NCBI GenBank assembly: GCA_030615855.1
Contig: JAUWYL010000003.1
Coordinates: forward strand, 2,384-66,383
From: a bacterium
Lineage (GTDB): Bacteria > UBP18 > UBA7526
Reading direction: 5' to 3'
Length of the DNA stretch: 64,000 nt
Shown here: piece by piece, positions 8,085 to 54,339 of the stretch
Position numbering within the stretch: position 1 is the first letter of the stretch
Layout: every line of letters starts with the position of its first letter
The notes under the pieces: model-generated
What the model was told of the DNA's origin: nothing
Databases searched by the model: none
What the model saw: the letters and a program-made list of their open reading frames with translations, nothing else
Made by a program: the position numbers and the translations under genes

Positions 8085-8315
8085 GATGAGACAGGATACT
8101 AGGTGATTAGGAGATTAGGATTTGGAAACTGGGATATTTGGATATTAGGAACGCCTTTGTCCCCAATCCCCTAGTCCCCTAATCATCCATCCTCCGTAGC
8201 AGTTGCACTGCTACTGCGGAGGACGGGCCAAATCCCAGTCTCCCAGTCACCCAATCTCCTAAATTTACTAATCCACCTAATTATTCTGTTCACCGTTCAC
8301 TGATCACCGATCACC
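8085..8315. repeat. ~230-bp imperfect palindrome centred on hairpin tcctccgtagcagt-tgca-actgctactgcggagga
   Basis: Flanking arms (ttaggagattaggatttggaaactggg / cccagtctcccagtcacccaatctcctaa) are reverse complements. Lies between hppA and ychF. Confidence 0.55.
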
Positions 8316-8319
8316 GGAA

Positions 8320-23396: not shown

Positions 23397-23531
23397 CGTG
23401 TCCCTTTGTCACTCGGTTAGGGTTAAGGTTAGGTTGTTAGTTTGGTCGTTGGGTTAGGTTGTTAGTCTTTTTAAACACCTAACCCTCACCAAACTACCAT
23501 ACCCACTACTTTACCCTAACCCAACTACTAA
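23397..23531. repeat. palindromic element of ggttaggttgttag ... ctaaccc k-mers
   Basis: Left arm ggttagggttaaggttaggttgttag. Right arm cctaaccctcacc...ccctaacccaactactaa. Confidence 0.6.
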
Positions 23532-30080: not shown

Positions 30081-30229
30081 AAGAACCCTCCTATAATTAA
30101 TTTGTTAGTTTGCTGGTTATTTGATACCTTATCAACTTATTAACTTATTAACTTATTAACTTGTTAACTAACCAATTATCCAACTATTTTACTAATCTAC
30201 CTAATTTACTTAGCCGACTTTGTCGGCTA

Positions 30230-31441
30230 TTAGCGGATGGCTTGGCTCATTTCAAAGATAGGTAATAGAATGGCTAAGACGATAAATCCCACCACAAGTC
30301 CCATTAAGAGTATAAGAATGGGTTCCAAGAGAGCAGTCAGGGTACCAACCGTGGCCTCCACCTCGCTATCATAGGTATCCGCTGCCTTATAGAGTAAATC
30401 CTCTAAGTTCCCGCTCTTCTCTCCAGAGGCGATCATTCTGACCACGATGGGAGGGAAGACCTTATTCCTGGATAAGGGAGCAGCCAGGCTCTCCCCCCTC
30501 CTCACGCTCTCCCCCGCCTCTCCAATGGCTTCTGAGAGAACCCGATTGCCCACGATATTCTTGACAATCTCTAAGGAACTCAAGAGGGGAACCCCGCCAG
30601 CCAGAAGGGTAGCTAAGGTGCGTGAGAACCTGGCCAGGGCGATCCCCTGGTTCAGAGGTCCAAAGAGAGGAACTCTTAGCCTCAGTCGATCGAAGATTTT
30701 CCCTCCTCCTTCTGTTTTGATATATCTCTTCATCCCAAAGATAAAGACAATGACTATTAGTAAGAGAAGCCACCAGTAGCCTTTGAAGAAGTCGCCTAAT
30801 TTAATCAGGATGATGGTGGGGAGGGGAAGAGAGGCCTGAAAAGTGGTAAATAGGCTAGTCACCCGAGGAATGACGAAGGTAAAGAGAAAGGATAGAACCA
30901 GGATGCCGATGGCCACAATGAAGAGGGGGTAGGCTAAAGCAGCCCTTATTCTATTCTCTAAGCGTAGGTGCTTCTCATTATAATCTGCCAAGCGTTCCAG
31001 AACAAGTTCTAATGCTCCGGCACTTTCACCGGCTCTAATCATACTGACATAGAGGCCAGAAAAGACCTTAGGATATTGGCTAAGGGCACTAGAGAGGGTG
31101 GAACCTGACTTTACCCTTTCGCGAACATCAACCAGGGCCTTCTTCAAAGTCTGATTCTCTAACTGCTCGCTCACCCCAGAGAGGGCCTCAGTGAGGGGAA
31201 GGCCGGCACTCAATAAAGTGGCCAGCTGCCGAGTAAGAATGGCTAAATCTCTTATCCTTACCCTCTTAAATATCCTTATCTCTCGTGAGGGAATAAGGGA
31301 GGGAAGAGATTCCTTTAAGGAGGTGAGATGTAAACCTTCTTGATGGAGCTTAGCCCGGGCTTCGGCAGGACTATCGGCATCGATGATTCCCCTCTTCCTC
31401 TTTCCCGACTTATCAAGGGCCTGATACTCAAAGACTGCCAT
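30230..31441 (-). CDS. gspF: type II secretion / type IV pilus platform protein GspF
   Basis: 403 aa. Two GspF/PilC repeats, each with cytoplasmic domain plus TM helices (e.g. GLPLTEALSGVSEQLEN, GGVPLLSSLEIVKNIVGNRV). Confidence 0.85.
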   Translation of the reverse strand: MAVFEYQALDKSGKRKRGIIDADSPAEARAKLHQEGLHLTSLKESLPSLIPSREIRIFKRVRIRDLAILTRQLATLLSAGLPLTEALSGVSEQLENQTLKKALVDVRERVKSGSTLSSALSQYPKVFSGLYVSMIRAGESAGALELVLERLADYNEKHLRLENRIRAALAYPLFIVAIGILVLSFLFTFVIPRVTSLFTTFQASLPLPTIILIKLGDFFKGYWWLLLLIVIVFIFGMKRYIKTEGGGKIFDRLRLRVPLFGPLNQGIALARFSRTLATLLAGGVPLLSSLEIVKNIVGNRVLSEAIGEAGESVRRGESLAAPLSRNKVFPPIVVRMIASGEKSGNLEDLLYKAADTYDSEVEATVGTLTALLEPILILLMGLVVGFIVLAILLPIFEMSQAIR

Positions 31442-31467
31442 CTCTCCCTCGCTGTCGCTCGGAGTAA
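31435..31467. repeat. 33-bp direct repeat, copy B (ctgccatctctccctcgctgtcgctcggagtaa), spanning the gspF start codon and leader
   Basis: Identical 33-mer also at 32952..32984. Together they bracket the HEPN/MNT cassette. Confidence 0.85.
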
Positions 31468-31487
31468 GATAGTATCAAAGTAGGAAA

Positions 31488-31606
31488 GTAATGGTTGGGA
31501 ATGGGTAGTAAGTAGTGAGTCGGGTAGTGAGTAGTGCGGGTGGGGTAAAGAGACCTCACAACTCACCCCCACAACTCGACTCACAACCCATAACTCACCC
31601 TCATCC
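31488..31606. repeat. ~120-bp imperfect palindromic element (ggtagtgagtagtg ... cacaactcgactcacaacccataactcaccctca family)
   Basis: Arms are reverse complements of each other. A second copy lies at 40621..40735. Confidence 0.65.
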
Positions 31607-31645
31607 TTTGCTGTTACTCTTCTTCTCTTCTTCTTTCCTACTCTC

Positions 31646-32065
31646 CTACCTTTTGGGTTGAGGTAGCATAGATTTTACCCAAGCGAAAAAGCGCTCAGTA
31701 TGCTTAATTATCTCTATTGCTTCTTTCTGGGTAAATAACCGCTCTTCATATTCTATGAGATTTTTCTTAGCGATGACCTTCCGCAGATGTTGAGCATTTC
31801 TCCTGGCATCAGGGGTTTTTATTGATTCGATTAATAAGCGTACTGCTTCTCTATGATCTGGGCTGGTACTTCTCACCTTGCGATAAAAAGTAAGCAGGGC
31901 ATCGTTAGCAGATATAACGCAGTGTACTGCTTCCAACCCTGCTGAATTCCAGTTGCCTTTTTCATAAGCCAATCTCATAGCCCGATGGAAATCCCGAGAT
32001 TTCCTAAAGTAATTTAGATACTCGCCAGGTTCAATCTTTTTGAATTTAGTCTTCTTAGCTATCAA
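31646..32065 (-). CDS. HEPN-domain protein (HepT-like toxin candidate)
   Basis: 139 aa, all-helical. R-x4-6-H motif in RRNAQHLRK. Overlaps the upstream nucleotidyltransferase gene by 11 bp. Confidence 0.6.
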   Translation of the reverse strand: MIAKKTKFKKIEPGEYLNYFRKSRDFHRAMRLAYEKGNWNSAGLEAVHCVISANDALLTFYRKVRSTSPDHREAVRLLIESIKTPDARRNAQHLRKVIAKKNLIEYEERLFTQKEAIEIIKHTERFFAWVKSMLPQPKR

Positions 32066-32678
32066 TTGTTAGCACCTCAGTTAAACTTTTTCCTTGAATT
32101 ACTTTTCCCTCTTTAATAATTCTCCCTATTAGCCTCTCTTTTGCCTTTTGCTTTTTAGTAAATTCCCTAAGGGTTAAGATATATGGGGAAACTACATTTC
32201 CAAAGGTATCCATTAATTCCATATTCAGGGAGTCGAATTTTCGCTCTACCTTCTTCTTTTCTTTCTGGCGGGAAACCAGTACTAAAAGGTCGATGTCGCT
32301 ATCGGAACTTTCTCTACCTTGAGCAAAACTTCCAAAAAGTATTACGGAGACTACTGTTCTATTAAAGGATTTAGTTATTTTCTTTAATGCTGTCTGAAGC
32401 AAGCCTGCCTCTTTTTTAAATAAAGGTTGGAGCACATGAGAGACTAAATAATTTGTTTCTTTTAAACCGAATAAATGAGCCTTACCTACCTTCTGTCTAG
32501 TGACTATTCCTTCGTTTATCAATTCTCTTAATGCCAAATGGCAGGTTCTATGGTTCAGTCCGCTGAGTTGGGCTATTTGACGACCGGTTATTTCTATTTT
32601 ACTTTTAAATAATACACGCAATATTTTAATCTTAGATCTCTGTCCCAATACCTCTTCCAAGACATTGTGCATACGCAT
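32055..32678 (-). CDS. minimal nucleotidyltransferase (MntA-like antitoxin candidate) with N-terminal winged-HTH
   Basis: wHTH segment GRQIAQLSGLNHRTCHLALRELINEGIV. Pol-beta-type motif ILFGSFAQGRESSDSDIDLLVL. Confidence 0.65.
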   Translation of the reverse strand: MRMHNVLEEVLGQRSKIKILRVLFKSKIEITGRQIAQLSGLNHRTCHLALRELINEGIVTRQKVGKAHLFGLKETNYLVSHVLQPLFKKEAGLLQTALKKITKSFNRTVVSVILFGSFAQGRESSDSDIDLLVLVSRQKEKKKVERKFDSLNMELMDTFGNVVSPYILTLREFTKKQKAKERLIGRIIKEGKVIQGKSLTEVLTIDS

Positions 32679-32733
32679 ACAACGGCCTCACTTTCTGGAT
32701 AATTTTATTACCTATATGGCTAATTTATTAACC

Positions 32734-32762
32734 AATATATCATAGGATTATTTGATTGTCAA
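32734..32762 (-). promoter_or_regulatory. sigma70-type promoter (TTGACA-17 bp-TATATT) for the MNT/HEPN cassette
   Basis: Minus strand: -35 TTGACA = complement of 32757..32762; 17-bp spacer; -10 TATATT = complement of 32734..32739. About 55 nt upstream of the MNT start, in an AT-rich segment. Confidence 0.6.
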
Positions 32763-32869
32763 CCCCCTTAGACTTTTTAAAAATTTATTGTCAATTCATA
32801 AGATTCAGTAAACTAAAAAATTTCTGATCGAAAGTCTAATGGGATCAAGCGATTGGTCAGTAAGCACAA

Positions 32870-32898
32870 ATTACAACTCAAATCGAAACTTTTGTCAA
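32870..32898 (-). promoter_or_regulatory. second sigma70-like promoter (TTGACA-17 bp-TGTAAT) overlapping duplicated tcgaaacttttg motifs
   Basis: Minus strand: -35 = complement of 32893..32898; -10 = complement of 32870..32875. The motif gtcgaaacttttg occurs twice (32884-32896 and 32914-32926), a possible operator. Confidence 0.45.
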
Positions 32899-32951
32899 GT
32901 AATTTCAATTGCAGTCGAAACTTTTGAGACTAAAGACACAGGATTAAAAAC

Positions 32952-32984
32952 CTGCCATCTCTCCCTCGCTGTCGCTCGGAGTAA
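32952..32984. repeat. 33-bp direct repeat, copy A (duplicate of the gspF start/leader, including ATGGCAG)
   Basis: Identical to 31435..31467. Here the duplicated start codon is followed by non-coding AT-rich sequence. Confidence 0.85.
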
Positions 32985-33245
32985 CCAGTAACCAGTGTAC
33001 AGTTTACAGCAAAAGAATATCAGATTACCAGTATATCAGATGGAGAGGGATAGATATCAGAAATCAGATAAATCTGATACTCTGACCATCTGAATTCTCA
33101 TTCTGAGACTCTGATGTTCTGCATTCTGAGCATCGCGAAGAATCTAGCCAGTTTATCTGGCGTCTAATCTATAGTTTTACTGGTTACTGTTTGCTGGTTA
33201 CTGTAAACCTCTATTCTACTATTCACTGATAGTAAGTATACCATA
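32985..33245. repeat. MITE-like palindromic element with gtaaccagtaaccag ... ctggttactgtaaacctctattctact termini
   Basis: Shares both end sequences with the element at 6690..6806. The interior carries gatatcag / tctgat and cgaagaatctagccag motifs, also seen at 61141-61260 and 63181-63310. Confidence 0.55.
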
Positions 33246-33332
33246 CTCCTCTTAAAAAAGCAAAAAAGCCACTACATTCATGTGACATAGTGGCTCTTAC
33301 TTACTTTCCTACTTTTTTACTTTTATACTCTT

Positions 33333-35120
33333 TTAGACTACTATTTCCTGGGTGACGCGCAGGACTTCTTCTAAGGTGGTGATTCCAGATAAGATCTTCT
33401 CCACCCCTGCCTGCTGTAAGGTGGTCATCCCTTTGGAGACGGCCTTCTGCTTTATAAGGTTGGTCTCTTTCTTATTGGTAATCATATCCCTTATCTCATC
33501 ATCTATTACTAATAGTTCGAAGATCCCGGTCCTTCCCCAATATCCAGTATCGAGACAAAAAGGACAACCCTTTCCTCTCCAGAGAACTCCCTCCGGGCCA
33601 GAGGCCCTCTGAGCCGGCGGCCCTTCCCTCCGGGGCAGAGCCCCCTCTCTCCGAGCCAGAGGCTCTTCCGAGCCGGAGGCTGGGGCGGAGCCTTTAAGGT
33701 CAGAAGGTTTCAATCCCACCTCTGCTAAGGACTCTGGCGTTGGAGTATAGGACTCCTTGCATTTTGGGCAGATGAGGCGAACTAATCTCTGGGCCATGAT
33801 CCCGATTATTGAAGAAGAGGCAAGATAGGGCTCCACCCCCATCTCGAGTAGTCTGGTAATGGCTCCGGCAGCATCATTGGTATGGAGAGTAGAGAAGACC
33901 AAGTGGCCGGTTAAAGCAGCGTGGATGGCAATCTCTGCGGTCTCGAAGTCTCGGATCTCACCCACCATCATAACATCCGGGTCCTGCCTCACAATAGACC
34001 TTAATCCAGAAGCAAAGGTTAAACCGATCTTGGGCTTTACCTGTATCTGTCCGATCCCCTCTAACTGATACTCAATGGGATCCTCCACAGTAATGATGTT
34101 TTTGTCCGGGGTATTAATGCGGTCTAAAGCACTATACAGAGTGGTCGTCTTACCTGACCCTGTTGGCCCAGTATTCAGTATGATACCATGGGAACTTTTG
34201 ATTAATTTGAGGAGCTTTTCCAGGTTCTTTTGAGAGAAGCCTAAGTTCTCCAATCTGAAGGACATACTCGACTTATCCAATAACCTCATCACTACCCTCT
34301 CCCCAAAGAAGGTGGGAATTACTGAGACTCGGATATCAATGTCCTTTCCCGCCATCTTGATACTTATTCTTCCATCCTGGGGAAGCCTTCTCTCAGCAAT
34401 ATTTAAGCTGGCCATTACTTTTACCCGAGAGACGATGGCCGGTTGATGACTACGCTCATTACGCAGAATATCATATAGCACGCCATCTACTCTATATCGT
34501 ATCCTCAGTTCCTTCTCAAAGGGCTCGATGTGGATATCACTGGCCCTCTTCTTTAAGGCCTCAATAATGAGGGAGTCAACGAACTTAATAATGGGTGGTT
34601 TGGAAGCCAAGTCCAATAAATCCTCTGCCCCTTCAAATGTTCCTTCCCCTTTTCCAAAATCAACCTTCTCAAACTCCTTTATGATTTCAGTGGCGCTCTC
34701 TCCCTCCTGGGCACCATAACCCCTTTCAATCCCTTTGAGAATCTCCTCTTCCGGAACGATGACCATCCTTAGAGGATGGGTCAGGATAAGGCGGAGATTA
34801 TCAATGGGACCAGGGTCCAAAGGATCAGAGGTAGCCACCCTCTCTCCTTTCAGGGGAAGAAGGCAACACCTCTTGAGGAAAGAATGGGAGAGTTCAGAGA
34901 GTCCCTCAGAATCGATATCCTCATCTGAGAGATGGTCCAAGTAGGGGACATGAAGTTTTTCACTCAAGACCCGCAGAATCTCTTCCTGAGTAAGAAACTT
35001 TAGTTGTAAGAGAACCTTATCTAATCTCTCATTGGTCCTTCCCTGTAAGTCTAAAGCCTCTTTTAATTCTTCCTTAGTTATCTTCTTATCCTTCAGGAGG
35101 ATCTCACCCAGATTCTCCAT
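33333..35120 (-). CDS. gspE: type II secretion / type IV pilus assembly ATPase GspE
   Basis: N1 domain, Walker A GPTGSGKTT, Asp and His boxes. C-terminal Cys pairs CPKC ... CPFC are separated by an in-frame low-complexity Gly/Pro/Arg insertion encoded by GC-rich tandem ccggagg/gagccgg repeats (~33590-33700). Confidence 0.85.
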   Translation of the reverse strand: MENLGEILLKDKKITKEELKEALDLQGRTNERLDKVLLQLKFLTQEEILRVLSEKLHVPYLDHLSDEDIDSEGLSELSHSFLKRCCLLPLKGERVATSDPLDPGPIDNLRLILTHPLRMVIVPEEEILKGIERGYGAQEGESATEIIKEFEKVDFGKGEGTFEGAEDLLDLASKPPIIKFVDSLIIEALKKRASDIHIEPFEKELRIRYRVDGVLYDILRNERSHQPAIVSRVKVMASLNIAERRLPQDGRISIKMAGKDIDIRVSVIPTFFGERVVMRLLDKSSMSFRLENLGFSQKNLEKLLKLIKSSHGIILNTGPTGSGKTTTLYSALDRINTPDKNIITVEDPIEYQLEGIGQIQVKPKIGLTFASGLRSIVRQDPDVMMVGEIRDFETAEIAIHAALTGHLVFSTLHTNDAAGAITRLLEMGVEPYLASSSIIGIMAQRLVRLICPKCKESYTPTPESLAEVGLKPSDLKGSAPASGSEEPLARREGALPRREGPPAQRASGPEGVLWRGKGCPFCLDTGYWGRTGIFELLVIDDEIRDMITNKKETNLIKQKAVSKGMTTLQQAGVEKILSGITTLEEVLRVTQEIVV

Positions 35121-35122
35121 AA

Positions 35123-37054
35123 TTACTTCCTCTCAAACTCCTCTATCTCTTCCCTCTTTCTCTCAGTCAGGGCTTCGACCTCCTCTGGAGTAGTAACCAC
35201 ATGAGGGGTGAGAAAGATGACCAAGCTTATCTTCTCTGTGACCTCTATCTTTCTCTTGAAGAGCCAGCCCAATCCCGGAATCCTTCCCAGTCCGGGGACC
35301 CTTCTCTCCACAACAGATTTATCTTCTCTCAGTAGGCCCCCAATAACAATGGTCTGGCCATCCCTGACCGTCACTGTGGTATCTGTCTCCCTCTTGGCTA
35401 AAACCGGAGCATCGTGTATCGTCTCTGCTAATACTTTCTGAATCTCCTGATGAATCTTTAAGGTAACAAATCCCTCAGGATTTATCTGGGGGGTGATCTT
35501 CAAGTTTATTCCCACATCCTCATAGGTATAGGTCTTTACCACCGTCTCATCTTCCGTTAGCCGAGAGGCAGTAACCATGGGGACCCTCTTCCCCACCTTG
35601 ATCTCCGCCTCCTGATTATTATTCACCAAGAGATAGGGGGTAGATAGGATATTGAATTCAGAATCAGTCTTATAGAGGTTAACCAGGGCAGCGATATTGG
35701 CTGGCTCATTCTTATATAATCCCAGGGTCATGCCATACAACGTCCCAGCCAAGTACTCTGGTCTCATCCCAAAGTGAGTCACCGCGAGGGGCCGATGGGC
35801 ATGGTCGAGCCGAAATTCTTCTAATGCTGCCCATTCCACTCCTAAGTTCAGGAACTTCTCTAAAGTGACCTCTGCTACCAGAGCCTCCACTAAGACCTGT
35901 TGGCGGGGGATGTCTAGTTTCTCAATAATCTTCTCTAATTCTTCATACTGAGTGGGAGCAGCAATGATGATGAGGGCATTGGTCAATTTATCAGCCACGA
36001 TAGTAGGCTTGGCCTCTATGGCCAGGGCCTTCCCCTTTCCCACTCTGCGAGCAACCATCTTGGCATACATCTCGGTCAAAACCTTGGCTAAGTCCTCAGC
36101 AGTCGAGTTCTTGAGATAGTAGACGTGGATCATCTCCTTCCCTGGAGGAGGCTTCTTATCGATCTCTTCCACAATGGTCATCATTCTCCTTATATTAGAG
36201 GAGACATCTGTAATGATGACCGTATTGGCAGGGGGATAGGTAATGAGATTTCCTCCCGGAGAGATTAAAGGGGTCAAGAGGCTTCGTACCTGATCGCAGG
36301 CAGCATACTCTAAGGGGATGAGCTGGGTGATAATCTTATCCTCTGGGCTTATCCTTTCAACCTCTCTTCCCACTCTGGTCTCAATGCTCTTCCCTTTCGC
36401 TTCCCTTGAGGGAATGACCTTTATCACCTCTCCCGCCGGAACCGTGGTATAGCCCTTCACCTCTAAGATAGACTCTAAGACGTGATATACCTCTTCTAAG
36501 GGAATCTTGGTGGGGGAGATGATGGTTACCTTCCCCCTCACCTTCTCATCGATGACGAAGTTCTTTCCGGTCAATTCGCTTATTGCTTTAATCACTACCT
36601 TAATATCAGCATCCTTGAAATCTAAGGAGACGAGATTCCGGGGTAAGGGTTTCTTAGTAACTTTCTTCTCCTTTGGTGAGATTCTCAAGGAGAGTCTATC
36701 TTTCTGGCTGGTTGCTTTATACTCTGCTGGTTTTTTCAGGTCTATGACCACCCGACTGATACTCTTCGGTCTATCCTTATACTGGGCAGACCTTATGCTC
36801 TTCACCAATGGATGATCGACTACCAATTCTCTCTTAGGCCAGGCATGGATGGTATTGGAAAGGTCTACTACCATACGATTCGGTTTGGTAAGGAGAAAGA
36901 TATTATAATCATGGGGAGAAGGGAGGGTAATATTGACCATTGCCTCCTCTCCCTTGGGTAGAAAAGTTATTTTCGTTAATTTACCTACCGCCCCAGAAAG
37001 GCTACTTCCCAATAGCAGGAAAATTAAAGACGAAATTATTATTCTTGTTTTCAT
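35123..37054 (-). CDS. gspD: type II secretion secretin GspD
   Basis: 643 aa. Signal peptide, N0/N1 periplasmic domains, C-terminal secretin domain (...TVVIGGLLREDKSVVERRVPGLGRIPGLGWLFK). Confidence 0.85.
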   Translation of the reverse strand: MKTRIIISSLIFLLLGSSLSGAVGKLTKITFLPKGEEAMVNITLPSPHDYNIFLLTKPNRMVVDLSNTIHAWPKRELVVDHPLVKSIRSAQYKDRPKSISRVVIDLKKPAEYKATSQKDRLSLRISPKEKKVTKKPLPRNLVSLDFKDADIKVVIKAISELTGKNFVIDEKVRGKVTIISPTKIPLEEVYHVLESILEVKGYTTVPAGEVIKVIPSREAKGKSIETRVGREVERISPEDKIITQLIPLEYAACDQVRSLLTPLISPGGNLITYPPANTVIITDVSSNIRRMMTIVEEIDKKPPPGKEMIHVYYLKNSTAEDLAKVLTEMYAKMVARRVGKGKALAIEAKPTIVADKLTNALIIIAAPTQYEELEKIIEKLDIPRQQVLVEALVAEVTLEKFLNLGVEWAALEEFRLDHAHRPLAVTHFGMRPEYLAGTLYGMTLGLYKNEPANIAALVNLYKTDSEFNILSTPYLLVNNNQEAEIKVGKRVPMVTASRLTEDETVVKTYTYEDVGINLKITPQINPEGFVTLKIHQEIQKVLAETIHDAPVLAKRETDTTVTVRDGQTIVIGGLLREDKSVVERRVPGLGRIPGLGWLFKRKIEVTEKISLVIFLTPHVVTTPEEVEALTERKREEIEEFERK

Positions 37055-37244
37055 TCTATCTCCTTGCCACCGCCGAATTACAAAACAAGTTGGATTAGTG
37101 TATTAGGTAGACTTTTAGGATATTAGTTGGATTAGTGTATTAGGTGGATTAGGTGAAAGTTAATTCAACTAGTCCAACTCATCCAACTAATTTACCAGTC
37201 TAACTATCCTTTTCTGCGTCTTTGCTTCTTCAGCGCTTCTGCGT

Positions 37245-38695: not shown

Positions 38696-40591
38696 TTACC
38701 ACTTAATATCTAATTGAACAAAGATTGTCTTCTTTGGCTCATCTGGCCTGGCGGTATAGTCTTCATTAGTGTAGTTCTTGCAGGTATATCTCACCCGCAA
38801 CTTGATATCCTTGGTGAACTTCTCCGTAGCCTGGAGATAGTATTCATTATACCTGGTGTGCCTATCGGTATGGATATCGGAGTCATAATACTTCATCCTT
38901 CCCTCTAATGTGAGGCCCTTGGGCTTAGGTAAGTCGTAGCGCACCTTGAAGTAGGCGGTCTGGTCCTCCTGAAATTTATTGGTATACTTGCTGGCATCCT
39001 TCTGGTAGAAGGTATAAGAAGTCTCTAACTTAAGCCTCTTGATGGGGCTATATTTGCATTTGAAGTTATCGGTAATCTTCTCTCCCTCACTGATTGAGCG
39101 TCCCCGGCCGTTCCTATCGATGTCGTTATTCCTCCACTTGCGGTAGTAACTCAGGGTGAGTTTCTTTATTGGGGAGTAGTCTATCTTTCCCTTCCATTCA
39201 TCATCGGTAACTAAGGTGGAGTGCTGCTTCCACTGCTTATAGTATCCCTGAACCTTCCATCTCCTGCTGAACTTATAATCTCCTTTTATACGGTACCCCT
39301 TCTCATCGGTATCCCTTCCAAAGGACTTACTATGGGGATTTTCAAAGTCGGTATCATAATCATAGTAGATGGTCTCTAATTTGAACCTCTCCAGTTCCGT
39401 GAGGGCCTTCAGAAGATAGGCATCCCCTCCATCCTTTCTCCGACCAAACTCAGCAAATAGATTGGTCCTCTTTATCTTGGTGGCGAAGTCCAACCCGGCC
39501 ACAGAGAAGGTCCTCTTATCCGGGAACCTTGTCCAGTAACTACTCTTATATTCAAAGGGAAAGTCCCGATCTATCTTGCTTTGATACCAGGTGGCACCTA
39601 AGTGGGTTTTTTTATCCCAGCGGAAGGTGACATTGGCTCCCTCTATCTCTTCCCTATAGACATCGGGCAGGGTCTTCGATCCCAGGTTGGTGCTTACTGA
39701 GGGTAGGTCATAGTCATCCTGGGAATAGAAGACTGTAGTATCCAGCCATCTCTTCCCTAAGGGGATCTTCTTCCACCTGAAGGCTGCTCCAAAGAGGCGG
39801 TCAGTAGTGGTATCGTTATAGTAGATCCCATGGGCTTTACTTCGACCGGTCTCATTGAAGACCAGTCCCTGTCCAAAGCCCACCCCATAGTCACCAGCGA
39901 TGGCACTCCATTGGGGTTCACTCATATAGATATACTTCCTTAAGAGGCGCACCTCAGTATCCTCATTCTTGATGATAGCAGTCGATCCGGTAGCGGTATA
40001 ACCATCCAATATCTCATCCCTCTCTCCCAGGAAGCCAAGATGCACCCGATCGTAGGCATGGAGGCGAAGCCTCTCGTACATATAGGGCCTCTCCCCATCT
40101 TTCTCGGTATTCTTAAATTTAAAGCGCGACTCCCCCTTCCAACCCCTCTCTTCCTTCTTCCTCTTCTTCTCTACCATAGCAAAGGGCTCTATCTGGTCGT
40201 AGATATCCTTAATCCCAGAGATCTTCTTCATATCTTCCATACTTTTAAATAGACCATATCTTTCGCGGTAGGCAATAATCCTATCTGCTAAGGTGTAGGT
40301 TACTTCTGGAAGGTTATAAAGTTCCTTTCTACTGGCGGTATTGAGGTCCACCGGGTTATTGAATAGGTCCCTCAAGAGTTCGTAGCCCTCATGACTAATA
40401 TCTCCATCCACATATTCTTCTTCGTCATAGTCCCATTCTCCAGCCAGGTCACGCAGGTCGTCCTCACTTCCTACCCCGGATAGATCGACAGCATAGTCAT
40501 AGGCCCAGAGGGGATAGGCGCCAAGTAAGAGAAGGCTGAATACTATTAAAATAGTGAGCTTCTTCCTGCAGTCCATATTATACTTCCTCAA
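38696..40591 (-). CDS. outer-membrane beta-barrel protein with N-terminal ComEA-type helix-hairpin-helix domain
   Basis: Signal peptide. HhH unit VDLNTASRKELYNLPEVTYTLADRIIAYRERYGLFKSMEDMKKISGIKDIYDQIEPF. About 450 aa of alternating beta-strand pattern ending in the aromatic residues ...VQLDIKW. Confidence 0.5.
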   Translation of the reverse strand: MRKYNMDCRKKLTILIVFSLLLLGAYPLWAYDYAVDLSGVGSEDDLRDLAGEWDYDEEEYVDGDISHEGYELLRDLFNNPVDLNTASRKELYNLPEVTYTLADRIIAYRERYGLFKSMEDMKKISGIKDIYDQIEPFAMVEKKRKKEERGWKGESRFKFKNTEKDGERPYMYERLRLHAYDRVHLGFLGERDEILDGYTATGSTAIIKNEDTEVRLLRKYIYMSEPQWSAIAGDYGVGFGQGLVFNETGRSKAHGIYYNDTTTDRLFGAAFRWKKIPLGKRWLDTTVFYSQDDYDLPSVSTNLGSKTLPDVYREEIEGANVTFRWDKKTHLGATWYQSKIDRDFPFEYKSSYWTRFPDKRTFSVAGLDFATKIKRTNLFAEFGRRKDGGDAYLLKALTELERFKLETIYYDYDTDFENPHSKSFGRDTDEKGYRIKGDYKFSRRWKVQGYYKQWKQHSTLVTDDEWKGKIDYSPIKKLTLSYYRKWRNNDIDRNGRGRSISEGEKITDNFKCKYSPIKRLKLETSYTFYQKDASKYTNKFQEDQTAYFKVRYDLPKPKGLTLEGRMKYYDSDIHTDRHTRYNEYYLQATEKFTKDIKLRVRYTCKNYTNEDYTARPDEPKKTIFVQLDIKW

Positions 40592-40620
40592 TTACGTTAA
40601 TCGGTTACGGTTACTTGTAT

Positions 40621-40735
40621 TAGGAGTGCGGATGAGTTGTGAGTAGTGGGTCGGGGATGAGTTATGAGGGTGAGGTAATAGAACTCAACCCCATCCCCAC
40701 AACTCGACACACAACCCATAACCCACCCTCAACCT
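40621..40735. repeat. second copy of the ~120-bp palindromic element family (see 31488..31606)
   Basis: gagtagtgggtcgggg ... cacaactcgacacacaacccataacccaccctca. Confidence 0.65.
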
Positions 40736-40751
40736 TTTAACCGGATAGCCT

Positions 40752-41207
40752 TTATTTTTCTTCCATTCTCTGGAGGGCACATCCCCCACCCACTCGTCTT
40801 TCTCTCGCCTCAATGAAGGGCTCTATTTGCTCATATATCTCTAAGGTTATTCCAGGAATCTTCTTTATCTCTTCCTTACTTTTAAAAAGTCCATACTTCT
40901 TGCGATATTCTATAATCCTATCTGCTAAGTTGTAGCCTATCTCAGGAAGGTTATAGAGCTCATCCCTATCTGCAGTATTGAGATTCACCTTATTATCAAA
41001 TAGGTCTTTCAAGGTTTCATATTCCTCGTTAGTAATCTCCCCATCGACATACTCCTCTGCATCATAGTCCCACTCTCCGGCCAGGTCACGTAAGTCGTCC
41101 TCACTGGTAACATCAGAGAGGTCAACCCCATAGTCATAGCCCAGGATGAGAGGAGCAAGGAATAGGAGACTAAAAATCATCAAAATAGTAATCTTTCTGT
41201 GATCCAT
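40752..41207 (-). CDS. small secreted ComEA-type HhH protein (paralogue of the N-terminus of 38696..40591)
   Basis: 151 aa. VNLNTADRDELYNLPEIGYNLADRIIEYRKKYGLFKSKEEIKKIPGITLEIYEQIEPF. Nucleotide-level similarity to the 5' end of the neighbouring gene indicates a partial tandem duplication. Confidence 0.5.
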   Translation of the reverse strand: MDHRKITILMIFSLLFLAPLILGYDYGVDLSDVTSEDDLRDLAGEWDYDAEEYVDGEITNEEYETLKDLFDNKVNLNTADRDELYNLPEIGYNLADRIIEYRKKYGLFKSKEEIKKIPGITLEIYEQIEPFIEARERRVGGGCALQRMEEK

Positions 41208-41246
41208 ATTACCCTACTTATATTCGCGACAATTCGTGTCTTGGCG

Positions 41247-42656
41247 TTACTCAATAGTAAAAGAACTTTTAAGAAAGCGGTAGGTCTCATCATCCATTCC
41301 CGGGACATCCTTCACTTCCCTCATACCCTTGAATGGACCATGGCTCTCTCTATAATCGATAATAGAACGAGCCATCCCCGGCCCAATGGCCGGCATGGCG
41401 GATAACTCCTGAAAGGTAACGGTATTGATATCCATCTTTTCTACAGTGATGAGATCTTTAAGTTTCTCATAAGTCTTAGATCCGATACGGGGGACATTCT
41501 GGATCTCAATGATACTTCTAAACGGACGATATTCGATGATGCGCCTCGCAGTCTTGGGTCCGATGCCTGGGAGGTTCTCCAACTCTTTCTGAGAAGCGAT
41601 GTTAATATTTACCTTTCGGGACACCCTCTTCCTCACCTCTGGCCTTTCTCCCGGAGGAACCTCACCAACAGTAATCAAGGGCCTCAGATTCTCCAAGGTC
41701 TTTGGCCCGATCCCCCTGGCCTTGGTCAATTCATCGATAGAGGCATAGGGTCGGGCATCTATGATGGCCCGGGCTTTCACCGGTCCAATCCCGGGAAGGG
41801 TCTGAATCTCTGAAGGAGAGGCGGTGTTGATATCAATCCTTGCTCTAACTGGAGGTGCTCTTTTTACAACCGGGACCTCCTTCTCGAGAGGGGCCTCGGG
41901 GGCTGGCTCTGCAACCTCACCAACAGTAACCAGGGGTCTCAACCTCTCCAGGGTCTTTGGTCCGATCCCTCTGACCCTGATCAGTCCATCAATGGTAGCA
42001 TAGGGACGGGCATCTATGATGGCCCGGGCTTTCACCGGACCGATCCCGGGAAGGGTCTGAATCTGAGAGGCGCTTGCCGTATTGATATTGACCAAATAAG
42101 AAGGCGCGGTATTCCTCTCTGGTCTGACTTCTTCCTTCTTCGCCAAACTCTCCCGAGCAAAATTTACCTCTTTCTGGGGTAATATCCGCATCTGAGGAAC
42201 CCTTACCACTTCTCCAGGATAGATGAGATCCGGGTTCTTGATCCTGTTATATAAAGCCAGATTAGGAAAGGCTGAAGCTATCCCCAGATACCTTTTAGCA
42301 ATCTTACTCAAGGTATCACCTTCCCTAACATAATGGGTTATTATTTCAATCCCCACTCCCGGAACCTGGAATGTTGCCTTTTCTAACTCAGGCTCCCTCT
42401 CCGGTCCAACAGTAACCAGGGGTCTTAACCTCTCCAGGGTCTTTGGTCCGATCCCTCTGACCCTGATCAGTTCATCAATGGTAGCATAGGGACGGGTATC
42501 TATGATGGCCTGGGCCTTTACCGGACCGATCCCGGGAAGGGTCTGAATCTGAGAGGCGCTTGCCGTATTGATATCTATTTTCTCCTGACCCAGCCCGGTC
42601 TGGGTCACAATAAGCAAAAGAAGGAAAATTAAAAGAACCAAGCCCTTTCTCATCAT
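41247..42656 (-). CDS. secreted protein with five tandem ComEA-type HhH DNA-binding domains and one LysM domain
   Basis: Five units of INTASxxQIQTLPGIGPVKAxAIIDxRPYATIDELIRVRGIGPKTLERLRPLVTVG. LysM: YVREGDTLSKIAKRYLGIASAFPNLALYNRIKNPDLIYPGEVVRVP. Units 1 and 2 are near-identical at the DNA level. Confidence 0.7.
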   Translation of the reverse strand: MMRKGLVLLIFLLLLIVTQTGLGQEKIDINTASASQIQTLPGIGPVKAQAIIDTRPYATIDELIRVRGIGPKTLERLRPLVTVGPEREPELEKATFQVPGVGIEIITHYVREGDTLSKIAKRYLGIASAFPNLALYNRIKNPDLIYPGEVVRVPQMRILPQKEVNFARESLAKKEEVRPERNTAPSYLVNINTASASQIQTLPGIGPVKARAIIDARPYATIDGLIRVRGIGPKTLERLRPLVTVGEVAEPAPEAPLEKEVPVVKRAPPVRARIDINTASPSEIQTLPGIGPVKARAIIDARPYASIDELTKARGIGPKTLENLRPLITVGEVPPGERPEVRKRVSRKVNINIASQKELENLPGIGPKTARRIIEYRPFRSIIEIQNVPRIGSKTYEKLKDLITVEKMDINTVTFQELSAMPAIGPGMARSIIDYRESHGPFKGMREVKDVPGMDDETYRFLKSSFTIE

Positions 42657-42699
42657 TCTCTCCTACGGCTTCCATATGACACGAATCTTTATTATGAGG

Positions 42700-42860
42700 G
42701 CGCGCTTCGCTTGCCCCCTCTACTAAGGAAGCCCGAATAACAAGGTTCTCGAGCGTTAGCGAGAGGCTTCCTTATTATGAGGGCGCGCTTCGCTTGCCCC
42801 CTCTACTAAGGAAGCCCGAATAACAAGGTTCTTCCCGCTTCATCGGGAAGGCATCCTTAT
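42700..42860. repeat. tandem duplication of a 78-bp unit carrying the aacaaggttct interspersed-repeat motif
   Basis: ttattatgagggcgcgcttcgcttgccccctctactaaggaagcccgaataacaaggttct occurs twice in tandem. Confidence 0.75.
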
Positions 42861-43085
42861 TTCCTGACCAGGATAGATACGATCCGGGTCTTTGATATTA
42901 TTTTCCTTGGCTAACTCTTTATATTTACTGGCATCACCAAGATAACGTTCTGCAATTTTGGCCAAGGTATCTCCCTTCTTTACCACGTGGACTATCTCTT
43001 CAACCACTGGCTTGAGAACTTCTTCTACTTTCGGAGGAGCTACTTCTTCAGGAACAACCTCTGGTGCCGGAGGCTTTTCTTTTTT

Positions 43086-45020
43086 TCAAGGAGTCTCTTC
43101 GGGAGGGAGAATAAGAATCTCTGTCCCCGGTGGTTCCTCTTCTGGCTCCTCAACCTTCTCAGGCTCTATGGTAATTAGATCCTTCAGAACCTCATATCTC
43201 TTGGCCCCGATGCCCGGGACGCTCCGTAGATCTTCAATCCTTTCATAGGGACGGTGGGCGATGATGGCCAAGGCCTTTACTGGACCGATCCCGGGAAGGG
43301 TCTCCAATTGAGTCCGAGAAGCGGTATTGATATTGATTTTCTCTACGACCCTCTCTGGTTTGACTGGAACCTCGACCTCTTCCTCAGGGATGGACACCTC
43401 TTCCTCTATTTCTATAATCTGGATATCTGAGAGATCCTTCGGTCTTATCTCCAATTCATTAGCATAAGAACCGATCTGACCACTGACTTGAATACTCGTT
43501 CCTTGAACCAGGCTTTCCCTCTCTGGTATGCTCTCATATAGGTCCTTCCAGATAACGACATTTATGGAGCCTGTTCCATCGTCTATCTTTAATGTTCTAC
43601 CCTTCTCCTCTTTGAAGACCCTGACAGATATTATCTTCCCTTTAATGGTCACCCTTTGACCGATGGAGGCCTCGGTTATCTTACCGATAGGAACCAGTTC
43701 CGTCTCCAGAATCTGGATGTCTGAGGGTTTCTTCAGTTTTATCTCGAATTTATCCTTGTAAGATGCGACTCGACCACTGACCTGAATAGGCATTCCTTGA
43801 ACCAGGCTTTGTCTATAGAGTAGGCTCTCGTATAGTTCCTTCCAGATAAGGACATCTATGGAGCCTGTCCCATCGTTTAGCTCTAAAGTACGACCTTTCT
43901 CCTTTTTAAAGATCCTGACAGACATTATTTTTCCTTTAAGGGTTACCTTCTGACCGATGGAGGCCTCAGTTATGCTGCTGATGGGAACCACTTTTTCCTC
44001 AGGAACAGGTACCACTTCTGGCTTCTCAATCTCTTCTGGCTTCTCAACAGGGACTTCTTTAACCGGAACCTCTTCAACTGGGACTTCTTTAACAGGAACC
44101 TCTTCCACAGGAACTTCCTCAATCTCCACTATAGGAGGCTTTTCTTCCTTCCTTTTCTTTGGGCCCCCGAAACGAAAGGTCAGAGTGCCCAGATGGGTCT
44201 CATCGAGGTTATGGTGGGGAAGATAAGCATAATCAAAGGAGAGGAATCTATTCCTCAATCCCCATCCTACCATCCATCTGCCGGGATTATTAGCCACCCC
44301 GGAGCGAAGGAAGAGATACTTCAGCCAGTGGTATTCCAGGCCTAATCTGAACTCGTCATCCTCCTCTTTCTCCTGCTTCTCATAGTGATAATCTACTGCC
44401 AGGATTAAGTCGGGGTCTGGTCGATAGGCGATCCCTCCCGCATACCTCTGGGGGAGGTCGTCACCGATATGGGGGGTATTAACGTTACCTCCGAATAAGC
44501 CAAGGCTCAACTTCCCGTCCAGGAGTTTATATAAGAGTCCTAAGTCCCCTCCATAATCGAACTCCTTACCTACAGTCTCGATCTCGAGACGGAGGTACTT
44601 GGCATTTCCCCCAAGATAGATATCCTGTTTCTCAAAGGTGAACTTCCTTCCATAGGAGAAGATATAGGCATCTTCTCTTAACTTCCTGTGGCCATAATTA
44701 GTCGTGGCCAATCCAATGGTACCCAGCCTCCCCATAGGCAGAGCGAGATTTCCTAACTTATACTCTAAGTCCTTCTCCCCATAGAGCATGGTATAGCTTC
44801 CAGATAATTCTATCATTTTCAATTGTCCCAGACCCGCCGGATTGAAGTAGATGGCACTTGAATCATCTGCCACAGCAGTAAAAGCCCCTCCCATACCCCA
44901 GGCACGGGCAGAAGAGGGCCTCTCCTCAAATATAGCCCAAGCCGAGACAGTGAACAGTGAACAGTGAACAGTGAACAGTGATAAAAAAAATAAAATAAAA
45001 AATAATCGCTTAACCTTCAT
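43086..45020 (-). CDS. modular outer-membrane / surface protein: FadL-OmpP1-like N-domain, VPVEEVPVKE repeat linker, two OB-fold domains, C-terminal ComEA-type HhH
   Basis: N-terminal WGMGGAFTAVADDSSAIYFNPAGL. Linker (VPVEEVPVKE)n. Two ~90-aa OB units (ITEASIGQKVTLKGKIMSVRIFKKEKGRTLELNDGTGSIDVLIW...). C-terminal ININTASRTQLETLPGIGPVKALAIIAHRPYERIEDLRSVPGIGAKRYEVLKDL. Confidence 0.6.
   Translation of the reverse strand: MKVKRLFFILFFLSLFTVHCSLFTVSAWAIFEERPSSARAWGMGGAFTAVADDSSAIYFNPAGLGQLKMIELSGSYTMLYGEKDLEYKLGNLALPMGRLGTIGLATTNYGHRKLREDAYIFSYGRKFTFEKQDIYLGGNAKYLRLEIETVGKEFDYGGDLGLLYKLLDGKLSLGLFGGNVNTPHIGDDLPQRYAGGIAYRPDPDLILAVDYHYEKQEKEEDDEFRLGLEYHWLKYLFLRSGVANNPGRWMVGWGLRNRFLSFDYAYLPHHNLDETHLGTLTFRFGGPKKRKEEKPPIVEIEEVPVEEVPVKEVPVEEVPVKEVPVEKPEEIEKPEVVPVPEEKVVPISSITEASIGQKVTLKGKIMSVRIFKKEKGRTLELNDGTGSIDVLIWKELYESLLYRQSLVQGMPIQVSGRVASYKDKFEIKLKKPSDIQILETELVPIGKITEASIGQRVTIKGKIISVRVFKEEKGRTLKIDDGTGSINVVIWKDLYESIPERESLVQGTSIQVSGQIGSYANELEIRPKDLSDIQIIEIEEEVSIPEEEVEVPVKPERVVEKININTASRTQLETLPGIGPVKALAIIAHRPYERIEDLRSVPGIGAKRYEVLKDLITIEPEKVEEPEEEPPGTEILILPPEETP
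44944..44985. repeat. tandem cagtgaa(ca) repeat inside the signal-peptide coding region (encodes FTVHCSLFTV)
   Basis: gtgaacagtgaacagtgaacagtgaacagtg. The same k-mer family forms intergenic tandem repeats at 1533-1561 and 10423-10448. Confidence 0.7.
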
Positions 45021-50290: not shown

Positions 50291-50307
50291 CCTGCACCTT
50301 TTGATAT

Positions 50308-50874
50308 TTAATTCCTTCCCTTCATGATCTTCTTCAGCCGATTCCAGACTCTTAAATCTTCCGCTTCATCACAGATCTTCATTGCCCATTCCTCAAGGTA
50401 TTTAACATCCAGGCTTCTCCCATGACGGATAAATATGCTTTCTACGTCAATCATATCTCGGCCTCTGCCTGGGATTAACTTGAGAAGAATTAAATCTTCG
50501 GGAGTAGGGATATAAATCTGCCGTCCCATAATTTTGGCTTTTCTTTTCCTTTGGAAGGCCGATTTTTCTAATGCTATTGATAGCTTGATGAAATCGATAT
50601 GAAGTCTACTGTGGTATAGACGGAAGACCCCCCGGGTATCAAATGTCTCTTGGACCACTTCCCTGTCGAATTTGAAGCCTTTCCTTTGAGCTGTGGTTAG
50701 GAATGCCTCTAATTTTTTCCTGTTTATTAAGATGATGAAATCCGCATCATTGGTTACTCTTGGTTCGCCAATAATACCGACCGCCAAACCTCCTACCAGA
50801 AGATAAGGGGTGTTTGTTACCTTTAACAACCCCAGGGCTTTATGAAAGACTACGGGAAATCTATTGGCTTTCAT
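50308..50874 (-). CDS. minimal nucleotidyltransferase-fold protein (GG...D.D motif), function unknown
   Basis: LLVGGLAVGIIGEPRVTNDADFIILI fits the Pol-beta superfamily hG[GS] ... DxD pattern. Paralogue of 55828..56313. Lies 17 nt upstream of the giant nuclease-like gene. Confidence 0.5.
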   Translation of the reverse strand: MKANRFPVVFHKALGLLKVTNTPYLLVGGLAVGIIGEPRVTNDADFIILINRKKLEAFLTTAQRKGFKFDREVVQETFDTRGVFRLYHSRLHIDFIKLSIALEKSAFQRKRKAKIMGRQIYIPTPEDLILLKLIPGRGRDMIDVESIFIRHGRSLDVKYLEEWAMKICDEAEDLRVWNRLKKIMKGRN

Positions 50875-54000: not shown

Positions 54001-54339
54001 CTTTACATCACCAGTAGTAGTACCAGCACGCATCACTTGGAAGTCAAAATTAGTAAGGGTTAATCCCCGGAAATCAAAGGTATCGGTTGTATAGGTAGAT
54101 TCTCCTGTACCGGCTTTGATCATTGCTGCATTGGTGCAGTAGCTAATGTTGTATGTTACGAAGTTACCATCAGCGGTCCAGCCCGACGGCCAATCGGGAG
54201 GATCTATACTTTCAAAATCCTCTGTATAGCCAGGCGAATGCGGTATAATGAGGGCCTGGGCACCCATACCCCAGCCCAGAAGCAACCCAATAGAGAGGGA
54301 TATCAATATTAAGTTCTGGGAAAGTCTTCTTTTCTTCAT
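51055..54339 (-). CDS. large surface protein with fibronectin-type-III-like domains and CFIATAAY C-terminal sorting domain
   Basis: Signal peptide. FN3-like units (e.g. ...YYAKIWAMDNAGNETTSPSG). C-terminus WGCFIATAAYSSGTDSHRFITDSHRSQIIVLQRFRDEHLL...SPPVARFISDKEPLK. TTGACA-17-TATACT promoter upstream. Confidence 0.65.
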   Translation of the reverse strand: MKKRRLSQNLILISLSIGLLLGWGMGAQALIIPHSPGYTEDFESIDPPDWPSGWTADGNFVTYNISYCTNAAMIKAGTGESTYTTDTFDFRGLTLTNFDFQVMRAGTTTGDVKFQYSIDGGAYSDLTTVIDVGALPVDQTYYSATDGTYGSLVAGALTAISESNNVVFKCIGNRSEGKVITDEIIWTTTGTYPYPTVTTQDASSIGTTTATLNCDFTMGEEISVDVYFQWGESSGSITDNETTYTPYGVAGSHTATPSFSKKTKYQFRGVVEYDSDHAYGDIKTFQTHPEAGENYLYNEFFDDITGSDPDEYTWGNRGERTTDPDEVLVGEASFAHEPYSDERYLKQLGKDLEVGKTYYVVVWAKGTGKVKVGVEHAGGIDESGVTDLDGADWTKISHSYVIGAGEGTTNGGIAIGLTRHAATGERLILGAAWLSDGEPPGGWLATKFSVVTEHSGTETAGTTFSVTVTAQRQDDTTVTDYTGSHYITWTWNATAIGVNDPTKPADGNQTFANGVATVSGFTLYNAGETPWIKADDGAINGTSTNIAVDPDNPNKLDFTTPPSDAAIVGFPFATQPKVSVKDTYGNVTPAAIGTVILALHAGAGALLPNDALTEDVVSGVASYSGIYYDTGETIQIDADSSAGYTSAISISIEVTDNNLPLINITESPVPSWKRGDWEISYTLIDADSHSCTGYPEYSTTGDEIDWHTASTDPASEESIGTPGEKTITWATATDLPTTEDDTVYFRMKANDGADDGSYGYMGDTASSPGTPFGIDNVVPSGLADFKASSATSTSITFSWTACTESYFSHYEIWYGKDQTKVQDKDNTGSPEGATKKEETDIDTSSTIVTGLTSPNIYYAKIWAMDNAGNETTSPSGTASVSVGLADVQESESKSSSSKLTWTPFTPSDKDFLRYRIYYGTNRTEVENKATSYWDDSNDVDLATRATTSTTITGLSGGTTYYIQLWGVYSSSPDTEVSTPVVTITTPAAAKEEAKSTSEKWGCFIATAAYSSGTDSHRFITDSHRSQIIVLQRFRDEHLLTNSLGKAFVRFYCRFSPPVARFISDKEPLKAMVRFYLKPIVWGAKRIVKEGRSDD

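Follow-up and report, generated by a model that had tools for sequence, protein, structure and literature searches.

In a 64,000-nucleotide stretch of DNA from a bacterium of the UBP18 lineage (contig JAUWYL010000003.1 of assembly GCA_030615855.1), a foreign module of about 1.3 kb lies in the 5' leader of the gspF transcription unit and enters 7 nt into the gspF reading frame. The module encodes a nucleotidyltransferase (MNT) and a HEPN protein, which together resemble a toxin-antitoxin pair. We will refer to the whole stretch as the window and give coordinates within it; all genes and features of the gspD-gspF region are on the minus strand. The cassette is foreign, it is younger than the host genes around it, and it recurs at one site. 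The interrupted gene, which encodes the inner-membrane platform protein of a type II secretion-like system, is intact (30230..31441; Pfam T2SSF, E 5e-67). On balance, and with slightly more belief than doubt, we view the insert as a passive cassette that bears a piece of the gspF start and that has been integrated and lost by homology-guided recombination through a duplicated anchor.

The cassette is flanked by a direct repeat. As a preliminary description of this sequence had reported, an exact 33-mer that includes the gspF ATG and its Shine-Dalgarno sequence occurs twice, at 31435-31467 (copy A) and at 32952-32984 (copy B), while 100 shuffles give an expectation of 0 matches. The match extends to 38 nt with two mismatches (95% identity). 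On the coding strand, the 33-mer reads TTACTCCGAGCGACAGCGAGGGAGAG-ATGGCAG, which is the Shine-Dalgarno sequence, the ATG, and four more bases. The downstream copy (A) runs on into gspF (ATGGCAG|TCTTTGAG...) and keeps it translatable. The upstream copy (B) runs on into the cassette (ATGGCAG|GTTTTTAATCC...) and is a pseudo-start that encodes just four codons, MAGF-stop. In every relative that we fetched, gspF is preceded by the same anchor, (TTACTCC)GAGCGAYAGCGAGGRAGAG-ATGGCRG, and therefore the repeat is native target DNA and not part of the element. Because what was duplicated is the native leader and start of gspF, the gene keeps a complete translation start.

To see the site without the cassette, we fetched gspF loci from related genomes and metagenomes (contigs from these are numbered L001 and up). 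The closest have 86-94% identity in GspF, and one of them is from UBA7526 and is labelled UBP18, so that the window belongs in this candidate phylum or near it. Five contigs (L002, L003, L092, L093, and L170) have an uninterrupted gspE-gspF junction, in the order gspE, terminator, promoter box, leader, anchor, gspF, with 181-362 nt between the genes. This is the comparison that the preliminary description had proposed, and it supports an insertion. The insertion is at the gspF start, as had been claimed, and we can place the exact junction 7 nt into the reading frame (ATGGCRG|GTTTTTAATCC).

A sixth relative, L004, may record the loss of a cassette. At L004 3900-3965 there are tandem anchors and no cassette (...GAGGGAGAGATGGCAG-AATTT-GAGCGGAGCGAAAATGGCAG-gspF): a B-type anchor, 5 nt (AATTT), and then a degenerate A-type anchor. 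The tandem anchors create a 12-codon upstream open reading frame (ORF) that overlaps the gspF start. This looks like, and is possibly, the deletion scar of a lost cassette. We also noticed that a segment of about 3.1 kb directly upstream of the tandem anchors is bounded by 63-nt and 58-nt repeats (316-427 and 3470-3578). In a metagenome assembly, JABUBL01, gspF is split after residue 51: L170 (1745-3946) continues into genes for an ABC-2 permease and an ABC ATPase, and L097 (1-1068) begins with residue 52. Either the contig is chimeric or gspF has a real insertion there.

Close relatives of the MNT protein (88-97% identity) are found on four other contigs only, L082 to L085; the next homologues are just 56% identical and lie in unrelated contexts. 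(The pairing of MNT and HEPN genes is also seen in L082 to L091.) L082 comes from an independent ENA assembly and is a single contig of 4972 nt that runs from a partial gspD through gspE, the leader, anchor copy B, and the cassette with its MNT and HEPN genes. The left junction is also crossed by two Logan contigs, L083 and L084. Its sequence, ATGGCRG|GTTTTTAATCC, is the same in the window and in all three of these contigs, so three independent assemblies carry the cassette at the same gspE-gspF junction. Could a misjoin of the cassette to the gspF locus, through a short shared k-mer, explain the arrangement? The window is from a metagenome assembly and 33 is a common choice of k. But the assemblies that cross the left junction are from other samples and cross it with sequence variants, and L082 joins gspD to HEPN without a break. 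Also, L001, assembled from a different read set, matches the window at 100% identity across 1391 nt and stops 30 nt into copy B, which is where an assembly graph with k=31 would break at a true 33-nt repeat. We consider an artefact of assembly to be highly improbable.

The DNA pattern of the left junction had no match in JGI metagenomes. The MNT protein, which is the only part of the cassette that we used for this search, had no relative in viral contigs or phage records, and its matches in plasmids were at 26-28% identity only.

The composition and the divergence of the cassette both set it apart from the genes beside it. Its GC content is 36.4%, as compared to 47.9% for gspE and 49.3% for gspF, and it falls to 0.28-0.30 in 200-nt windows across the non-coding part (32679-32951). 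Between the window and L082, synonymous divergence (dS) is 0.10 in MNT and 0.19 in HEPN, whereas gspE has 0.50 and the 3' part of gspD has 0.81. In counts of synonymous differences, the cassette has 28 at 223 sites and gspE has 138 at 380 (Fisher p = 8e-11). Yet L082 is not the closest relative of the window: by gspE and the 3' part of gspD, the window is nearer to L002, which lacks the cassette (dS of 0.31-0.38 in gspE and gspF and 0.45 in the 3' part of gspD). In its non-coding region, the cassette is 94.6-95.0% identical to those of L082 and L084, while no alignment is possible between the gspF leaders that flank it. The low dS of the cassette, its conserved non-coding leader, and the proximity of the window to L002 argue that the cassette spread laterally between lineages and always entered the same site. 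Both genes have been under purifying selection, given their dN/dS of about 0.2 (MNT) and about 0.08 (HEPN).

Alternatively, the cassette could have been inserted once, long ago, and inherited vertically. The empty sites would then be precise secondary losses, and the low divergence would reflect constraint or composition. All carriers do have the same left junction, an empty site is no proof that a lineage never had the insertion (a perfect junction would be left by recombination between the repeats), L004 looks like an imperfect loss, and the greater similarity of the window to a non-carrier than to a carrier would fit too. On the other hand, synonymous divergence in the cassette is 3-6 times below that of adjacent genes in the same pair of genomes, and it is even below that between the window and its closest non-carrier. 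The non-coding leader of the cassette is 95% identical, too, while neighbouring non-coding leaders were wholly replaced. And copies A and B of the window resemble each other more than either resembles an orthologous copy. We think that a single ancient insertion is unlikely, although it deserves to be taken seriously. Separately, we asked if the cassette might have arrived within a long homologous replacement with a crossover in gspF, and this is unsupported: gspF of the window is most similar to that of the non-carrier L002 in its first 300 nt (93-98% identity), and identity in gspD-gspE does not rise toward the cassette.

How did the cassette get there? The preliminary description saw a self-contained mobile cassette that had made a 33-bp target duplication. 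Our results support neither part of this. The coding content of the insert is the MNT and HEPN genes and nothing else, according to the ORF list and Pfam. There are no terminal inverted repeats at its ends, and we found no recombinase or transposase in the cassette or among the 20 other mid-size ORFs of the window that we scanned, which are housekeeping or ComEA-like. As for the repeat, it ends on its 5' side where the conserved anchor gives way to a hypervariable hairpin, which is different in each relative, so 33 nt may be the surviving core of a longer duplication.

In L084, the ATG of copy B has decayed to ATA, and the 55 nt before this pseudo-start are identical to the leader that immediately precedes gspF in L096. 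Over 26 nt, the 3' end of L085 is a perfect inverted partner of the 5' end of L096 (L084 matches at 27/30), which is the pattern of two contigs that were broken at one hairpin. If L084/L085 and L096 are contiguous, then the repeat is at least 55 nt in that lineage and the gspF promoter lies downstream of the cassette. So the repeat in L084/L096 probably has a length of 55 nt or more, versus 33 nt in the window. Furthermore, copy B looks like a hybrid in both L082 and L084. Its 5' part is L002-like in L082 and L096-like, over about 55 nt, in L084, but both copies end in the cassette-linked GAGGGAGAGATRGCGG, which differs from the corresponding host starts (GAGGAAGAGATGGCAG in L002 and GAGG-AGAAAATGGCAG in L096). 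The far end thus appears to be host-like and the near end to belong with the cassette. A crossover inside the anchor fits this pattern; a fill-in duplication would not give it.

From these comparisons, we propose that a cassette without a mobility gene travels with the cassette-proximal part of an anchor that it picked up in a previous host. Recombination of the Campbell or "ends-in" type, within 20-55 nt of homology, would integrate the cassette and recreate the direct repeat. Recombination between the repeats would remove the cassette and leave an intact gspF junction. The 33 nt would then be no footprint of a staggered cut but the conserved core of a duplicated leader, with the insertion point on one side and a fast-replaced hairpin on the other.

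One competitor is a true target-site duplication, which amounts to the model of the preliminary description with an enzyme that is supplied in trans. A site-specific or ruler-type integrase or transposase, encoded elsewhere, would make cuts staggered by about 30-33 nt that are then filled in, and would place promoter-bearing cassettes at gene starts. The repeat is exact, both copies have a lineage-specific C, and three carriers agree on the junction down to the nucleotide, all of which this account would explain. It also draws on a second, unrelated cassette in the window with the same layout. Here a 30-nt direct repeat (29/30 identical; 54310-54339 and 55404-55433) is made up of the start, ATG plus the first 27 nt, of a gene for a 1094-aa fibronectin-type-III (fn3) protein, and its two copies flank a ParB-like gene (ParB_N/HTH_ParB; 54488-55273). 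A TTGACA...TATACT promoter-like site lies just before the real start of the fn3 gene. L175, from another metagenome (JGI 3300035493), has the same ParB layout with diverged copies. The two repeats of this genome are thus of similar length (30-38 nt).

There are several problems with this explanation. No transposase, integrase, or terminal inverted repeats were found in or near either cassette, and since the gspF and ParB repeats are unrelated in sequence, a single site-specific enzyme cannot account for the two. The gspF repeat of the L084/L096 lineage is probably 55 nt or longer, and the cassette-proximal end of copy B in L082 and L084 matches the other carriers instead of the presumed host. 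In L175, similarly, the upstream ParB-side copy is more like the copies in the window than like its own downstream copy. We also note that a piece of native leader lies on opposite sides of the ParB cassette in the window and in L175. The fn3 protein, downstream of the ParB cassette, had no relative in the protein collection. We judge a true target-site duplication to be improbable, but it is a serious contender.

A broader version of this idea is that UBP18-type bacteria have an undescribed general way of putting promoter-bearing cassettes at gene starts, in which about 30 nt including the start codon are duplicated and the resident gene survives. HEPN/MNT at gspF and the ParB-like gene at fn3 would be two products of it. 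Plain homologous recombination would not do for such gene-start insertion, which would call for an enzyme acting in trans or for guidance by RNA or hairpins, and which could be linked to the hypervariable "word" hairpins that are described below. We find this quite doubtful.

Our preference for a passive cassette that recombines through its anchor has its own difficulties. First, the two copies in the window are identical and share a C (GCGACAGCG) that is absent from all other lineages, which is the outcome expected of a fresh local duplication. To explain this by recombination, we would have to invoke mismatch correction or an identical donor anchor. Second, 20-33 nt of homology is at the lower limit for RecA-type recombination, and recombination does not explain the origin of the first duplication. 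Third, the "host" sequences behind the hybrid copies (L002 and L096) are relatives and not real pre-insertion alleles, and the link from L084 to L096 joins contigs of different sequencing runs. Finally, the downstream junction was read in the window only, as L082 to L085 end within about 70 nt after HEPN, so the repeat was seen directly in one genome. Homology between the carriers ends at ...CAACCMAAAAG, within the last codons of HEPN; the stop codon and the 3' flank are different in each carrier lineage. Because the sequence past HEPN differs in all three classes of carriers, the right-hand limit of the mobile unit is undefined.

We considered two other kinds of cassettes and set them aside. 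For an integron cassette, the junctions, G|GTTTTTA on the left and G|TCTTTG on the right, lack the GTTRRRY core of an attC site, and the hairpin after HEPN is not specific to the cassette, although we did not specifically look for an integron integrase. A dif/Xer module was set aside by eye only: there is no arm symmetry, and the repeats of the two cassettes are unrelated.

The site of insertion is not inside an unbroken operon, as had been supposed. The upstream neighbour, gspE (33333..35120), encodes the type II/IV secretion ATPase (Pfam T2SSE, E 3e-141, and MshEN) and lies downstream of gspD (35123-37054). It is followed by an intrinsic terminator at 33298..33264, with a 14-pair stem and then a run of T, and relatives have a terminator hairpin at the same position. 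Next is a promoter-like box at 33263..33235 (TTGCTT-17-TATACT with a TGn extension). The sequence of this box, TTTTTTRAAAGRGWRTRTGRTATACTTA, is conserved in all nine sequences that we compared (the window, L002, L003/L092, L004, L082, L093, L094, L096, and L170), and we infer that it is the promoter of the gspF unit. L004 has gspF behind another gene and yet keeps the box, which shows that gspF and the downstream genes (gspG and pseudopilin genes) form their own transcription unit. As an aside, gspE itself contains an addition. At 33587-33681, GC-rich degenerate repeats, spaced by 16-21 nt, add about 33 residues (…GSAPASGSEEPLARREGALPRREGPPAQRASGPEG…), and GspE has 595 amino acids in the window versus 562 in L002, L003, L082, L092, and L093.

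The cassette begins with an AT-rich, non-coding 5' region of 273 nt (32679..32951), for which two near-consensus promoters had been described. The first of these, P1 (TTGACA-17-TATATT, 32762..32734), scores 11/12 and has a TG extension. Its hexamers are invariant in the three other carrier contigs that cover the site (L082 to L084), while bases of the spacer vary; L085 starts inside the first hexamer. The case for P2 (32898..32870) is weaker. Its TTGACA (32898-32893) arises from a 32-bp tandem duplication (32869-32926) that is specific to the window. Its -10 hexamer is TGTAAT in the window versus a perfect TATAAT in the relatives, whose -35 hexamer is weak. And the region does not have more promoter-like sites than shuffled sequences do (4 found versus 4.4 expected). 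We predicted no coding-strand terminator between HEPN and gspF, so transcripts from P1 and from the gspF promoter may plausibly read through into gspF. A stable hairpin in the leader between HEPN and gspF could, however, hinder such transcripts or cause them to be processed.

That hairpin is part of what we call an X-type leader (31468..31645), and it was noticed previously as a palindrome at 31488-31606. It is real, as the 231-nt stretch that holds it folds at -78 kcal/mol (z -3.2), but it sits 20 nt from the functional copy A (at 31467) and does not adjoin the upstream copy B, as had been thought. It is nested in a second hairpin and belongs to a family of hairpins in other intergenic regions of the window, with a further copy at 40592-40751. 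Upstream of the pseudo-start is a different, Y-type leader (32985..33225), a hypervariable "word" hairpin with nested hairpins; the 301-nt stretch that holds it folds at -90.9 kcal/mol (z -4.3), and it has a family copy at 6676-6823. The ends of the Y-type leader are common to the leaders of L004 and L170. The 3' arm of the X-type leader matches the native leader of L003/L092 and its 5' arm matches the native leader of L094. So there is native-type leader on both sides of the cassette, which fits either an originally longer duplication or a donor leader that was carried along. A scan of 31300-33450 with Rfam gave chance-level matches to the hairpin only.

Most of the larger intergenic regions of the window contain hairpins of this kind (for example, 1412-1550, 5125-5813, 6676-6823, 23397-23531, 30081-30229, 37055-37244, 40592-40751, and 63181-63376). 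In the leader hairpins, one arm consists of degenerate tandem words of about 6-8 nt (such as gacacggat, ggttaggg, gatcaca, or ccagtaa) and the other arm is its complement. Families turn up more than once in the window, in nested form and in either orientation, and are wholly different between relatives with over 90% identity in GspF. Many leaders end in a ACTCCGAACGGAGTGAGG-like motif before the start codon. In L093 (8041-8573), a gene for a 130-aa four-helix-bundle protein, similar to 23S_rRNA_IVP and bAvd (8101-8493), lies between two pseudopilin genes and appears to lie between the two arms of one word hairpin.

The content of the insert between the two copies is as the preliminary description had it: a winged-helix (wHTH) nucleotidyltransferase gene, a HEPN gene, and the AT-rich segment. 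The MNT gene (32055..32678; 207 aa) comes first and overlaps the HEPN gene (31646..32065; 139 aa, with a TTG start) by 11 nt. The MNT protein matches HTH_24 (23.6 bits), which is its N-terminal wHTH, as well as Polbeta (E 1e-11) and NTP_transf_2 (E 4e-10) in Pfam. Its motif is G116-S117-x10-D128-x-D130, and all four of these residues are at least 90% conserved (37 homologues). It matches PADLOC's PDC-M05A at E 3.8e-21, from residues 5-193 of the protein to positions 4-186 of the 201 in the model, but it has just 38.3 bits against NCBIfam's MntA_antitoxin, below the cutoff of 60.

The HEPN protein matches PF05168 (27.9 bits; the cutoff is 22) and not the HepT/DUF86 family, and has a weak match to PDC-M05B (E 5e-3). 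Its family has 660 representative proteins at E up to 0.001, among which are fusion proteins of MNT length. We confirmed a conserved R-x4-6-H motif, R65-x5-H71 (R65 in 53/62 homologues and H71 in 60/62), but residues 88-93 (RRNAQH) show no such conservation in the family. Tyr106 is conserved in 61/62 homologues, and the other conserved residues are H48, D55, K101, R125, and W129. The AF2 model (pLDDT 93.9, pTM 0.88) is an up-down HEPN bundle of four helices, and its best matches in the PDB are HEPN proteins (2hsb, 1ufb, 1wol, 3o10, and 5yep). The similarity is highest to AF_0298 (2hsb; TM 0.72/0.79), and TT1696, ST0689, and sacsin are also similar; HepT is lower (5yep, TM about 0.6).

Judging from these matches, the pair appears to be a PDC-M05-type HEPN/MNT module, and it is related to type VII toxin-antitoxins but is not a member of HepT/MntA. 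The catalytic motifs of the module are intact. By analogy to its families, HEPN would be an RNase toxin that acts through R65-x5-H71, and MNT would be an antitoxin that neutralises it, most likely through nucleotidylylation of the kind seen in type VII systems. With its wHTH, MNT would also repress the promoter of the cassette, which makes it a putative autoregulator. AMPylation by MNT is established as the means of neutralising HEPN toxins for HepT/MntA (PMC7641770, PMC11586414), and we carry it over from there. PDC-M05 has been described as a pair of a nucleotidyltransferase and a HEPN protein that is enriched in archaea and whose antiviral role is unconfirmed (PMC12988326).

A few other features of the window may be of interest. 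DUF6036 nucleotidyltransferase-like genes at 50308-50874 and 55828-56313 are each just upstream of a gene for a large secreted protein. The leader and start of a 1422-aa LTD/metallo-beta-lactamase gene (50278-50309) resemble the pseudo-start region at 55421-55452, with 88% identity over 32 nt. Also, many genes at 38696-45020, 59818-61956, and 63377-63958 have ComEA-like HHH_3 domains, some with OB folds or LysM as well. They have internal repeat families of 169 nt and 289 nt in common. Because these ComEA-like genes lie beside the type II secretion-like operon, the "type II secretion" genes may belong to a machine for DNA uptake.

It is known that toxin-antitoxin modules and candidate defence modules move, but one rarely sees how the smallest of them do so without a mobility gene. 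Here we have a concrete picture of a cassette that brings along part of the ribosome-binding site and start codon of its target, is found at the same chromosomal site in genomes that have diverged from each other, and leaves the gene that it interrupts functional. As a consequence, the platform and pseudopilin genes of a type II secretion-like (and possibly DNA-uptake) system now lie immediately behind a toxin-antitoxin promoter that is probably self-regulated. Expression of these genes may have become coupled to the HEPN/MNT module. Together with the ParB cassette of the same layout, the hairpin-filled leaders suggest a style of genome remodelling that is lineage-wide in this uncultured phylum.

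We found no precedent for this arrangement in the literature on UBP18 or on start-codon duplications around toxin-antitoxin inserts, but parts of it are familiar. CIME-like elements are non-autonomous, are flanked by att-type direct repeats, usually lie at the 3' ends of genes for tRNAs or proteins, and depend on a cognate integrase with a defined core. Our cassette is like these, or like a Campbell-type insertion, in that it is a recombinase-less insert between direct repeats of target-gene sequence, it replaces the end of the gene that it interrupts, and its excision would restore the target. Unlike in CIMEs, the target is a 5' leader with its start codon, and the length of the repeat seems to be variable. 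We know of no integrase for the gspF-anchor cassette. Xer-dependent dif modules and IMEX elements often carry toxin-antitoxin genes, and the sites of dif modules are in alternating orientation and have 11-6-11 arms. Like our cassette, dif modules are about 1-2 kb, often contain toxin-antitoxin pairs, lack their own recombinase, have repeats of about 28-30 nt, and are moved by host enzymes. But by eye the 33-mer does not have the 11-6-11 symmetry and is simply the ribosome-binding region of gspF, and the repeat of the ParB cassette is unrelated in sequence.

Among toxin-antitoxin systems, the closest are the type VII HepT/MntA pairs, for example those of Shewanella (SO_3166/SO_3165; PMC7641770) and Legionella (PMC11586414). 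These also have two overlapping genes with MNT first, a GS-x10-DxD motif in MNT, and a conserved R-x5-H and tyrosine in a protein with the HEPN fold (TM about 0.6 to HepT, 5yep). They differ in that our MNT is below the cutoff for MntA (38 vs. 60 bits) and has an extra wHTH at its N-terminus, and our HEPN belongs to PF05168, with a fold that is nearer to AF_0298, TT1696, and ST0689. Also, its Tyr106 is 35 residues after the R-x5-H instead of adjacent to it. PDC-M05, a candidate defence system of PADLOC (PMC12988326), has the same two-gene architecture, with a full-length match of our MNT to PDC-M05A and a HEPN partner. The HEPN protein of the window matches PDC-M05B only weakly, however, and whereas PDC-M05 is enriched in archaea, this module is at a bacterial secretion-system locus.

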